Virus record (IMG/VR): IMGVR_UViG_3300012936_000003
Location: 1 to 64,000 of that record
DNA length: 64,000 nucleotides
Strand: one strand, 5' to 3'
Source of the DNA: a virus
In this document: piece by piece, positions 61,437 through 64,000 of the stretch
Layout: every line of letters starts with the position of its first letter
Position numbering within the stretch: position 1 is the stretch's first letter
Position numbers and translations under genes: made by a program
The notes under the pieces: generated by a model
Databases searched by the model: none
Told to the model about the DNA's origin: nothing
The model's input: only the letters and a program-made list of their open reading frames with translations

Positions 61437-61533
61437 AAACGTTGGAGCTTTTTCAGCAGGAATGTTTGTAGGGACAGTTTACGGCTCAGTGGTTGCCGCA
61501 ATTACTTCATACGCCGTTCTATCTACTTTCTAA
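61393..61533 (+). CDS. Small single-TM peptide (46 aa; absent from the ORF track)
   Basis: GGAGG at 61382-61386, ATG 61393; MYMKKMMKKATQAIKNVGAFSAGMFVGTVYGSVVAAITSYAVLSTF*, with tandem GxxxG. Confidence 0.55.
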   Translation: MYMKKMMKKATQAIKNVGAFSAGMFVGTVYGSVVAAITSYAVLSTF

Positions 61534-62035
61534 ACCCTACAAGATAAGGTAGCCATTTCTCGTGTACCTTTTCCTTTTCAATAATATGAAACATCTGTGA
61601 GCTTGGCTGCATCGGCTGTTTTAATGGTTGCATACCTGCTTGAAATGGGAGCTTATCTCCCTTTATTTGGTTACACTTTTTACAGCACGTCACAATGTTC
61701 TCCCATGTCTTTGGACCGCCCTTGCTTCTGGGTGTCACGTGATCCAAGGTAAGTTTGTCTGTTGGGAATTGACCTCCACAATATTGACAAACGTTTCCAT
61801 CTCGCCAGAAAACATTCTTTCTATTACACTTCAGAGTTAATTTGTCCCTTTTGATATATCTGTTTAGGGAGACAACACTGGGTACTGGGAATTTTTCATA
61901 AGCAGAGTGTATAAACTCATCGTCATAAACTTCAACTATGTTTGCACGCCCCATATATATTAAACAGAAAGCCTCAAAAGAATTAATTATCTGAACAGGT
62001 CTGTATGATGAGTCTAATTTTAAAGTTCTTCTCAT
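61523..62035 (-). CDS. HNH endonuclease (McrA/HNH_5-like)
   Basis: NRKNVFWRDGNVCQYCG…LTLDHVTPRSKGG…WENIVTCCKKCNQIKG. Confidence 0.92.
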   Translation of the reverse strand: MRRTLKLDSSYRPVQIINSFEAFCLIYMGRANIVEVYDDEFIHSAYEKFPVPSVVSLNRYIKRDKLTLKCNRKNVFWRDGNVCQYCGGQFPTDKLTLDHVTPRSKGGPKTWENIVTCCKKCNQIKGDKLPFQAGMQPLKQPMQPSSQMFHIIEKEKVHEKWLPYLVGFRK

Positions 62036-62438: not shown

Positions 62439-63053
62439 CTAGATAATCTCGTCAATCAGTCCATAACTTAAACACTTTTCTGCGTCCCACCACAGGTCAT
62501 GTTTAAGAATCTTATCTAGTTCTTTTTTTGGAATCTTTGTGTGTTCTTCATAAATTTCTTTAATGACCTTCATGAAATTGTCACAGTTTTCCATGTCATC
62601 TTTAATTTCTTCATACTTCCCCCAAAAACCGGAAGAAAGCTGATGAATAAGCATATAGGCGTGTTTATGCATCTGGCGATGACTGGCACATACACTCATA
62701 ATAGTACCAGCAGATGCAGCGCATCCATCAATAACTGATGTTACTGGTGTCTTTGATTTTAGAATATAATCAGAAGAAGATAATCCAGCAAAAACACTTC
62801 CACCGTATGAATTGATGTGTACAAAGATTCTTCCGGGATCTGTGCTTAGGGCGACAGCCCTGTTCTGAAGACTTACGTCTAGACTATGTAATGCCTTATT
62901 AAGTTCTAGGTTCTTAGCCCTGCTTACTTCTGAATAAAAATAGATTCTGTTATTGACAGTCTCTACCCTGTTGTTATCATCTGAAGAAGCATTTTCAGAT
63001 CCGCAAATTGCAGATTCTTTCTTTGAACTTAACCAGTGAATATCTTTTTTCAT
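62439..63053 (-). CDS. clpP: ClpP-like serine protease
   Basis: NRIYFY, HINSYGGSVFAG, GCAASAGT (catalytic Ser), MLIHQLS (His), DLWWDAEKCLSYGLIDEI. Confidence 0.92.
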   Translation of the reverse strand: MKKDIHWLSSKKESAICGSENASSDDNNRVETVNNRIYFYSEVSRAKNLELNKALHSLDVSLQNRAVALSTDPGRIFVHINSYGGSVFAGLSSSDYILKSKTPVTSVIDGCAASAGTIMSVCASHRQMHKHAYMLIHQLSSGFWGKYEEIKDDMENCDNFMKVIKEIYEEHTKIPKKELDKILKHDLWWDAEKCLSYGLIDEII

Positions 63054-63080: not shown

Positions 63081-63157
63081 TGGCACGCCCGAGAGGACTT
63101 GAACCTCTAACCCTCGGTTTAGAAGACCGATGCTCTATCCAGTTGAGCTACGGGCGC
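63081..63157 (-). tRNA. tRNA-Arg (anticodon UCU)
   Basis: GCGCCCGTAGCTCAACTGGATAGAGCATCGGTCT-TCT-AAACCGAGGGTTAGAGGTTCAAGTCCTCTCGGGCGTGCCA. Confidence 0.97.
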
Positions 63158-63170
63158 ATATCTTTCTATT

Positions 63171-63199
63171 AATATAACACGAGTTGCAGCAATTGTCAA
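63171..63199 (-). promoter_or_regulatory. Sigma70-type promoter for tRNA-Arg/clpP
   Basis: TTGACA (63199-63194), 17-bp spacer ending TGT, TATATT (63176-63171); 13 nt upstream of tRNA-Arg. Confidence 0.8.
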
Positions 63200-63271: not shown

Positions 63272-63442
63272 TTATTCTTCTTCTACAGCGTCTTTAGCTT
63301 TTCCTAGTAGCTTCGCAACTGATGCACGAAGTTTTCCCACAGGACTAATCATGTGCTCTAAAATAAGACCGGTGCTTAGACCAATGGTCAGAGTAATTGA
63401 ATGAGCGGCTACGAATTCTACAATTTGGTTTAAAGTTTCCAT
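63272..63442 (-). CDS. Small membrane protein, 56 aa
   Basis: Start METLNQ after AGAGG, immediately 3' of tmRNA; one hydrophobic segment. Confidence 0.65.
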   Translation of the reverse strand: METLNQIVEFVAAHSITLTIGLSTGLILEHMISPVGKLRASVAKLLGKAKDAVEEE

Positions 63443-63462: not shown

Positions 63463-63831
63463 TGGTGGAGGTGGTGGGAGTTGAACCCACGTCCGCAATA
63501 GTTTTAATATCAAGTCATTCACAAGTTTATTTAGTTTACTATCACAAACTAACAAAGATAGACAGAAAATCCCGGTGCTTACTGCCCTGTTGCACTCCAC
63601 CTATAAATAGGGAACCATTTTGGTTTTGTTTGTTTCAGTGGAACCACCCACTTAATCAGCTTTGGTTACAAGGTTGCTGATCACCCCGTCGCATCAATAC
63701 TGTTTAAGCAGCAAGTGCGAAGTCAACGTTGTCGTTGGCATTTAAAGTTTTGCTACACTGTCAAGCTATGTGTTGCCGTTAGCTACTTGCACTCTCAACC
63801 TCTACTACCCCGTCAAATCCACGTCACCCCC
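63463..63831 (-). ncRNA. ssrA: tmRNA, one-piece, 369 nt, tag (A)ANDNVDFALAA*
   Basis: 5' GGGGGTGACGTGGATTTGAC; 3' GACGTGGGTTCAACTCCCACCACCTCCACCA; acceptor stem with G3:U; tag ORF 63739-63704 after TTTAAAT. Confidence 0.95.
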
Positions 63832-64000
63832 GTTAATGTATTGTTCAATATTGAACTTCTTATATAGTTGTCTGAATCTTTTTGGTGTGAGACCCAAGAA
63901 CCTACTTGCTTCTGATTTTGTCTTAGCAGAAGACACCGCAAATAATAGTAGTGATTCTTTGATCATGTCTTGAAGTGAATACCATATTGGAAAACCATAG
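63805..64000 (-). CDS. Fis-like helix-turn-helix protein (5' end outside the window); its stop lies inside tmRNA
   Basis: …MIKESLLLFAVSSAKTKSEASRFLGLTPKRFRQLYKKFNIEQYINGGDVDLTG*, matching the Fis/NtrC HTH pattern; TAG at 63807-63805. Confidence 0.7.
   Translation of the reverse strand, partial: YGFPIWYSLQDMIKESLLLFAVSSAKTKSEASRFLGLTPKRFRQLYKKFNIEQYINGGDVDLTG

Follow-up and report, generated by a model that had tools for sequence, protein, structure and literature searches.

A protein-coding gene that overlaps a tmRNA gene (ssrA) is reportedly on record for Carsonella, in which Mao et al. are said to have described an overlap of smpB and ssrA in 2009. In Candidatus Carsonella ruddii, smpB runs into ssrA, an arrangement that was judged not to be widespread (Hudson, Lau & Williams 2014, PMC4131195); 250 same-strand overlaps by an upstream coding sequence (CDS) were counted among 115,660 t(m)RNA genes (PMC4131195). 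The concept of an ssrA that strips an overlapping CDS of its stop codon is already published for this organism, and the phage regulator described here adds to it. In E. coli, the arfA mRNA is cut by RNase III to give a stop-less message, and ArfA is held in check by tmRNA tagging (PMC3989581; cited in PMC4131195). It is RNase P that generates the 5' end of pre-tmRNA, and tmRNA-SmpB takes stop-less messages as its substrates (PMC3985003). Phage tmRNAs are uncommon; one survey counted them in 2.3% of isolate genomes (PMC9004378).

The locus analysed here resembles that of Carsonella in that a same-strand upstream CDS extends into ssrA at its 5' end, the overlap is confined to part of the lineage, and the borrowed C-terminal residues look random. 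Carsonella, however, is cellular, an endosymbiont whose genome is extremely reduced, and its CDS is that of SmpB, whereas the present case is a marine phage and a helix-turn-helix (HTH)-type protein. For the phage clade, comparison also shows the loss of an ancestral promoter between the two genes. The likeness to ArfA, predicted for the phage, lies in RNA processing in or at the end of an ORF, which leaves a message without a stop and, as long as trans-translation works, leads to tagging and degradation of its product. For arfA, both the hairpin that is cleaved and the activity of the shortened product are conserved and have been shown by experiment to be regulatory, whereas in the phage the cutter would be RNase P at a tRNA-like end and most homologs are without the arrangement. 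As in the bacterial CDS/t(m)RNA overlaps, the stop of a protein gene falls a few bases into the tRNA-like gene that follows on the same strand; three relatives with a tRNA in this position (L155, L159 and L161) are described below.

The reading frame and the tmRNA gene

The window is the whole stretch of DNA that was analysed, 64,000 nucleotides corresponding to positions 1-64,000 of virus record IMGVR_UViG_3300012936_000003. The full record is 103.8 kb long, has 42.5% G+C and is estimated to be 57% complete; it carries myovirus-type features, namely a baseplate wedge protein, PhoH and very large structural ORFs. Among isolate phages, megablast of the region returned tRNA matches only and tblastn of the HTH protein returned zero matches, so that no cultured-phage carrier of the HTH family was found. 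Pfam gave no match to SmpB or to ClpX-type AAA_2 in the 57%-complete record. The features of the locus are listed below.

62439-63053, minus strand: ORF of 204 aa resembling ClpP-family serine proteases (Pfam CLP_protease, 94.8 bits)
63081-63157, minus strand: tRNA-Arg (tct), from ARAGORN and Rfam
63171-63199, minus strand: promoter-like site TTGACA-17-TATATT (11/12, TG) just upstream of tRNA-Arg, about +632 from the first base of the tmRNA (G1) and conserved in the window clade
63272-63442, minus strand: small ORF of 56 aa with a strong Shine-Dalgarno sequence, starting 20 nt past the CCA end of the tmRNA and kept in relatives
63463-63831, minus strand: one-piece tmRNA (ssrA), from ARAGORN and Rfam RF00023, with G1 at 63831 and the CCA end at 63463
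63704-63739, minus strand: tmRNA tag reading frame, ANDNVDFALAA and stop (ARAGORN coding part 93,128; tmRNA nt 93-128)
63805-63831, minus strand: shared stretch of 27 nt, the last 8 codons of the HTH ORF plus TAG and at the same time tmRNA nt 1-27
63805-64158 of the virus record (63805-64000 in the window), minus strand: HTH ORF of 117 aa, from ORF lists and homologs
64171-64443 of the virus record, past the window end, minus strand: Lys/Glu/Pro-rich low-complexity ORF of 90 aa with a strong Shine-Dalgarno sequence

The tmRNA gene is genuine and intact. It is 369 nt long and matches RF00023 over its full length (model positions 1-374) with 110.9 bits against a gathering score of 47. The acceptor stem, GGGGGUG/CACCUCC with a G3-U pair, is of the alanine type, and the molecule carries a T-arm and an encoded CCA end (3' end CACCUCC-ACCA). 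Covariation was observed within the clade of the window, where U6-A is replaced jointly by C6-G in L086 and L088 (GGGGGUG/CACCUCC to GGGGGCG/CGCCUCC). The tag ends in a hydrophobic ALAA-type degron, and related tags are present in 74 distinct tmRNAs of the family. A permuted tmRNA at 63704-64000 (minus strand) was also considered and rejected: the RF04321 match of 48.7 bits at the window end fell to 38.7, below threshold, with the full flank, and is an edge artefact because the match is cut off by the window end. The upstream acceptor piece of a permuted tmRNA is absent from the window.

The initial annotation reported that the HTH ORF has no stop before 63831 and that 8 of its codons plus TAG lie inside the tmRNA, and both statements are exact as read from the sequence. 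The overlap is GGG GGT GAC GTG GAT TTG ACG GGG TAG, so that the ORF ends ...EQYIN-GGDVDLTG-TAG; its last own codon is AAC (Asn) and its stop, at 63805-63807, is the UAG of tmRNA nt 25-27. No in-frame stop ahead of G1 was found in the window ORF or in any member of its clade. Codon variability is 0.23 bits in the overlap vs 0.7-1.3 elsewhere in the ORF and lowish (0.43, n=4) across the last four own codons; outside the overlap itself, the last 100 nt of the ORF hold no conserved synonymous block.

Homologs of the HTH ORF comprise 123 proteins in a large database and 291 viral and 201 metagenome stretches, and the family was seen in marine metagenomes and viral contigs only. An AlphaFold2 model (43-sequence alignment, pLDDT 83.7) is all-helical with a C-terminal helix-turn-helix; residues 111-117, which are borrowed from the tmRNA gene, are disordered in it. 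The protein had been called Fis-like, a description that suits its shape but does not amount to demonstrated family membership. Fis chains rank top in Foldseek (TM 0.54-0.59 on the target over 68-75 columns), but with an E-value of about 1.4 and a probability of 0.69. Residues 62-108 of the family profile align with residues 50-97 of Fis (PDB Fis) at a non-significant E of 0.57. No PHROGs, NCBIfam or Pfam family matches the protein; the best Pfam entry, HTH_28, stays under its cut-off (E 0.09), and HTH_8 gives no match. In the predicted fold, a long helix followed by a C-terminal helix-turn-helix resembles Fis and the NtrC-type HTH, whereas the N-terminal two thirds of the protein are without counterpart in Fis.

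Distribution and origins of the overlap

We scanned 80 viral and 80 metagenome loci around homologs with ARAGORN. About 60% of these loci had a same-strand tmRNA downstream, with G1 lying between -39 and +1069 nt from the ORF stop. The ORF has its own stop and a spacer of 37-1069 nt in 58 of the 69 distinct HTH-tmRNA junctions, so a stop-less message conserved in the gene family, as in an ArfA-type system, is not what we found. The overlaps fall into several groups. The window clade, with an overlap of 27 or 30 nt, consists of L003/L083 and L084-L090 (55-77% identity to the window protein) together with protein clusters P0001-P0009 (63-94% identity), that is, at least 8 distinct fetched loci and 9 protein clusters. 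A second group is formed by L004/L091 and L109 (27-nt overlap), and L081 stands by itself with 39 nt. In every overlap G1 is the first base of a codon (frame 1).

The initial annotation asked whether the overlap is conserved in related phage genomes. It is inherited throughout a clade at 55-94% identity, but most of the family has its own stop. A recent, neutral stop loss, which the annotation had named as the opposing case, agrees with this second observation, as most homologs in the wider family stop before ssrA; the overlap is not recent, however, because its clade spans 55-94% protein identity to the window. In a quick maximum-likelihood tree of 128 distinct proteins, the overlap state needs 3 changes, which speaks against a single origin of all overlaps; some columns of the tail remained in the tree and may have drawn the overlap rows slightly closer to one another. 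The window clade has a support of 84 and its inner nodes of 98 and 99, all from the same quick search, and the overlaps of this clade and of L004/L109 may be of single origin. Junctions within the window clade vary by codon-sized indels (YIN, YINN, YFND, YFIN and a 7-codon loss in P0009) and all keep the same frame; no out-of-frame variant was found among about 17 sequences.

The groups differ in how the overlap is built. In L004/L091 and L109 the ORF reaches ...EKELDK and then crosses an intact promoter, TTGACA-17-TATATT, and the leader before it enters the tmRNA. The ORFs of L033, L055 and L146 end at EKELDK(K) and a stop, and because other family members stop at this point, the second group represents stop-loss read-through. 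In the window clade the conserved body of the protein (...Y-I/F-N) directly abuts G1, with neither tail nor promoter nor leader in between. L081 represents a separate fusion event and likewise lacks the promoter; its nearest site lies at -429, ahead of the ORF.

Other tRNA-like elements were seen near the end of the HTH ORF. In L155 (1790-1840), L159 and L161, the ORF (...KKDKPL) ends 10 nt into a tRNA-Thr gene and its TAG is tRNA nt 8-10; the same stop-stripping would apply there, with a tRNA replacing the tmRNA. At loci with gaps of 190-275 nt, a T-arm-like hairpin followed by CCCUCCAC(G/A)G is conserved between the promoter and the one-piece tmRNA (for example L033:3021-3229, L006:3013-3207 and L146:2015-2212). 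The CCCUCCAC(G/A)G element is complementary to tmRNA nt 1-5 and shows no covariation with tmRNA nt 5-7. Together with the 5' half of the tmRNA, the hairpin and element pass RF04321 with 57.1, 51.9 and 48.7 bits vs 47. The element may be a relic or may serve as an alternative acceptor piece, and would then represent a stage between one-piece and two-piece tmRNA genes.

Promoters, neighbouring genes and the predicted transcript

Promoters were scored out of 12 against a sigma-70-type consensus, which may not be that of the host; phage promoters of the middle or late type, or transcription starting at G1, would escape it. Sites of at least 10/12 starting between -45 and +10 of the ORF stop occur at 26 of 58 junctions with a tmRNA and at 18 of 37 without one, where 0.03 were expected. 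In about half of the family the HTH ORF thus carries a near-consensus promoter at its 3' end, of the form TTGACA-17-TATAxT, with TTGACA often encoded by Leu-Asp-Lys/Asn; L146, L033, L055, L011, L149, L160 and L118 are among the loci with a promoter on the last codons. Judged from its position, this promoter would usually drive the downstream tmRNA, tRNAs or other genes. A near-stop promoter-like site was present in all 16 loci tested with gaps of 182-276 nt. Sites lying 14-34 nt before G1 were found in L038 and L061 (gap 37), in L103 and L108 (gaps 56-58), and in L052 and L077.

No such site is visible in the window clade. Within 160 nt before G1 nothing exceeds 9/12, the best sites scoring 8-9/12 at unconserved positions, and in 8 members the roughly 430-650 nt upstream of G1 hold no site of at least 10/12. 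Neither the consensus scan nor the profile of codon variability revealed a conserved promoter inside the HTH ORF, and no terminator-like site was found on the minus strand here. All 8 members have conserved sites of 10-11/12 with an extended -10 at -657 to -693, which in the window is the site at 64496-64524. The tmRNA of the clade is probably made from the regulator's own transcript, because the near-ORF-end promoter of relatives is gone and the nearest strong site lies about 660-690 nt upstream. The first gene after the site at 64496-64524 is the 90-aa ORF, which precedes the HTH gene; it has a counterpart in L002 (83 aa) and no family match.

Alternatively, the two genes may overlap at the coding level only, most tmRNA being transcribed from G1 itself or from a promoter within the ORF that escaped recognition, and few stop-less messages being made. 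We consider this unlikely. Weak sites of 8-9/12 do occur in the ORF, such as AAGACA-18-TATTAT at 63942-63971, but they are not positionally conserved in the clade and their number, 9, compares with 9.0 expected in shuffled sequence. A TATATT-like hexamer ends 4 nt before G1 in L003, L084 and L086, but it would start transcription within the tmRNA. The lowish variability of the last four own codons and the fact that phage-specific promoter types lie outside the consensus of the scan would also agree with a promoter of this kind; relatives, on the other hand, use near-consensus sites for the same gene.

Downstream of the tmRNA, the 56-aa ORF, whose product is predicted to have one hydrophobic helix, begins 20 nt after the CCA end; the tmRNA would therefore be cut out of an mRNA that continues on both sides, and processing of the tmRNA 3' end would generate the 5' end of the message for this ORF. 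No promoter-like site was found between the two. The 204-aa protease ORF sits between tRNA-Arg and tRNA-Pro. Just downstream of tRNA-Pro, at 61523-62035 (minus strand), lies an HNH endonuclease ORF (HNH_5, 1.9e-18; PHROG 16726). Homing-type nucleases are typical of phage tRNA clusters.

The protease ORF had been taken for a ClpP encoded about 400 bp away that might degrade the tagged regulator. The distance holds, the ORF starting about 410 bp past the 3' end of the tmRNA, but the product fails the cut-offs for ClpP (TIGR00493, 54.7 vs 308.6 bits; PRK00277, 72.2 vs 249) and matches ClpPs in the PDB with an E-value of 2e-14 only. Its best match is the head maturation protease PHROG 94 (5e-43), and the best model is NF045542, a ClpP-related head maturation protease (105 bits, cut-off 120). 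From these matches, the product of 62439-63053 is more likely to be a prohead protease than ClpP.

By-product of compaction or selected circuit

The reading that we prefer, with a probability of roughly 0.55, is that of a fusion by loss, in which a co-transcribed tmRNA leaves the regulator with a stop-less message as a tolerated by-product of compaction. The fusion would have come about by loss of the short acidic tail and stop of the ORF, of the sigma-70-type promoter at its 3' end and of the tmRNA leader. The fused ORF would then use the UAG at tmRNA nt 25-27, a stop that many tmRNAs of the family carry anyway, and the 8 borrowed residues would be a disordered free-rider tail. A stop evolved specially inside this tmRNA was considered and rejected, since a frame-1 stop at most 30 nt from G1 is present in 56% of the tmRNAs of non-overlapping relatives.

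We infer that co-transcription, cleavage by RNase P and tagging should follow one another as set out here. A polycistronic early transcript from 64496-64524 would run from the promoter through the 90-aa ORF, the HTH ORF and the tmRNA to the 56-aa ORF. Because the stop lies inside the tmRNA, trimming of the tmRNA should cut the HTH message before its stop: cleavage by RNase P at G1 would leave a message that ends ...AUU AAC. Ribosomes left on this fragment would reach its stop-less end, be rescued by tmRNA-SmpB and release a tagged, short-lived protein, ...EQYIN-AANDNVDFALAA. Ribosomes passing earlier, while the tmRNA is still unfinished or unfolded, would end at UAG and make the full 117-aa protein, ending ...EQYINGGDVDLTG. 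The by-product would cap the output of regulator per transcript and would not be a selected timer. Against pure neutrality, the frame has been kept through several junction indels and 3-4 independent overlaps, which hints at some selection on the ORF end.

A selected self-tagging circuit, in which maturation of the tmRNA deliberately makes the regulator message stop-less as a timer or feedback loop, had been proposed by the initial annotation. We find it improbable and think the overlap better explained as a tolerated side effect of compaction. The overlap does persist through about 45% protein divergence, but most of the family keeps its own stop, and the junction codons (Asn, Asp, His) are more than one base change from a stop, so that this persistence may reflect mutational inertia. 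The frame was retained across several junction indels, and the overlaps that recur in other lineages are all in frame 1; a stop-less message, however, can do without a fixed frame and without an in-frame stop, and conservation of the frame therefore points to a normally terminated product. Loss of the promoter would make the coupling obligatory in the window clade, but L004 and L109 read through an intact promoter, from which a tmRNA would be made that truncates no regulator message; most of the tmRNA in that group would therefore not derive from the message of the regulator. ArfA provides a precedent for regulation by a programmed stop-less message (PMC3989581, PMC4131195). The nearby protease, however, is not ClpP, the layout is exceptional in its family, and an in-frame stop pre-exists in the 56% of non-overlapping tmRNAs noted above; the proposal of a timer or feedback loop is not borne out.

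A variant to which we give only slight credence is an ArfA-like gauge of trans-translation capacity with homeostatic control of the phage tmRNA supply. If this were true, the stop-less message would encode a regulator that is short of its 8-residue disordered tail only. With plentiful tmRNA-SmpB, the product would be tagged and destroyed; with rescue saturated, it would escape through untagged rescue routes and act on early promoters, possibly including the promoter from which its own operon and the tmRNA are transcribed. That the HTH ORF is not a real gene, or truly ends elsewhere, and the overlap is an annotation artefact is extremely improbable: there is no clear Shine-Dalgarno sequence ahead of the ATG at 64158 and no Pfam or PHROG family match, but the ORF has hundreds of homologs with conserved residues, a confident predicted fold and coding-type variation, and no clade member has an in-frame stop ahead of G1.

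Read as a by-product of compaction, the locus presents a phage tmRNA that shows no separate promoter, would lie within an early mRNA and by its maturation should destroy the reading frame of a regulator. It would be a second, independent natural example of the arrangement in Carsonella. Because the operon is compact and natural relatives have a separate stop, transfer to a laboratory host and a direct test are possible. The comparison also shows a route to such overlaps, through loss of the ORF tail, promoter and leader. In the wider family, a conserved regulator gene would usually bear, on its last codons, the promoter for downstream tmRNA and tRNA genes.
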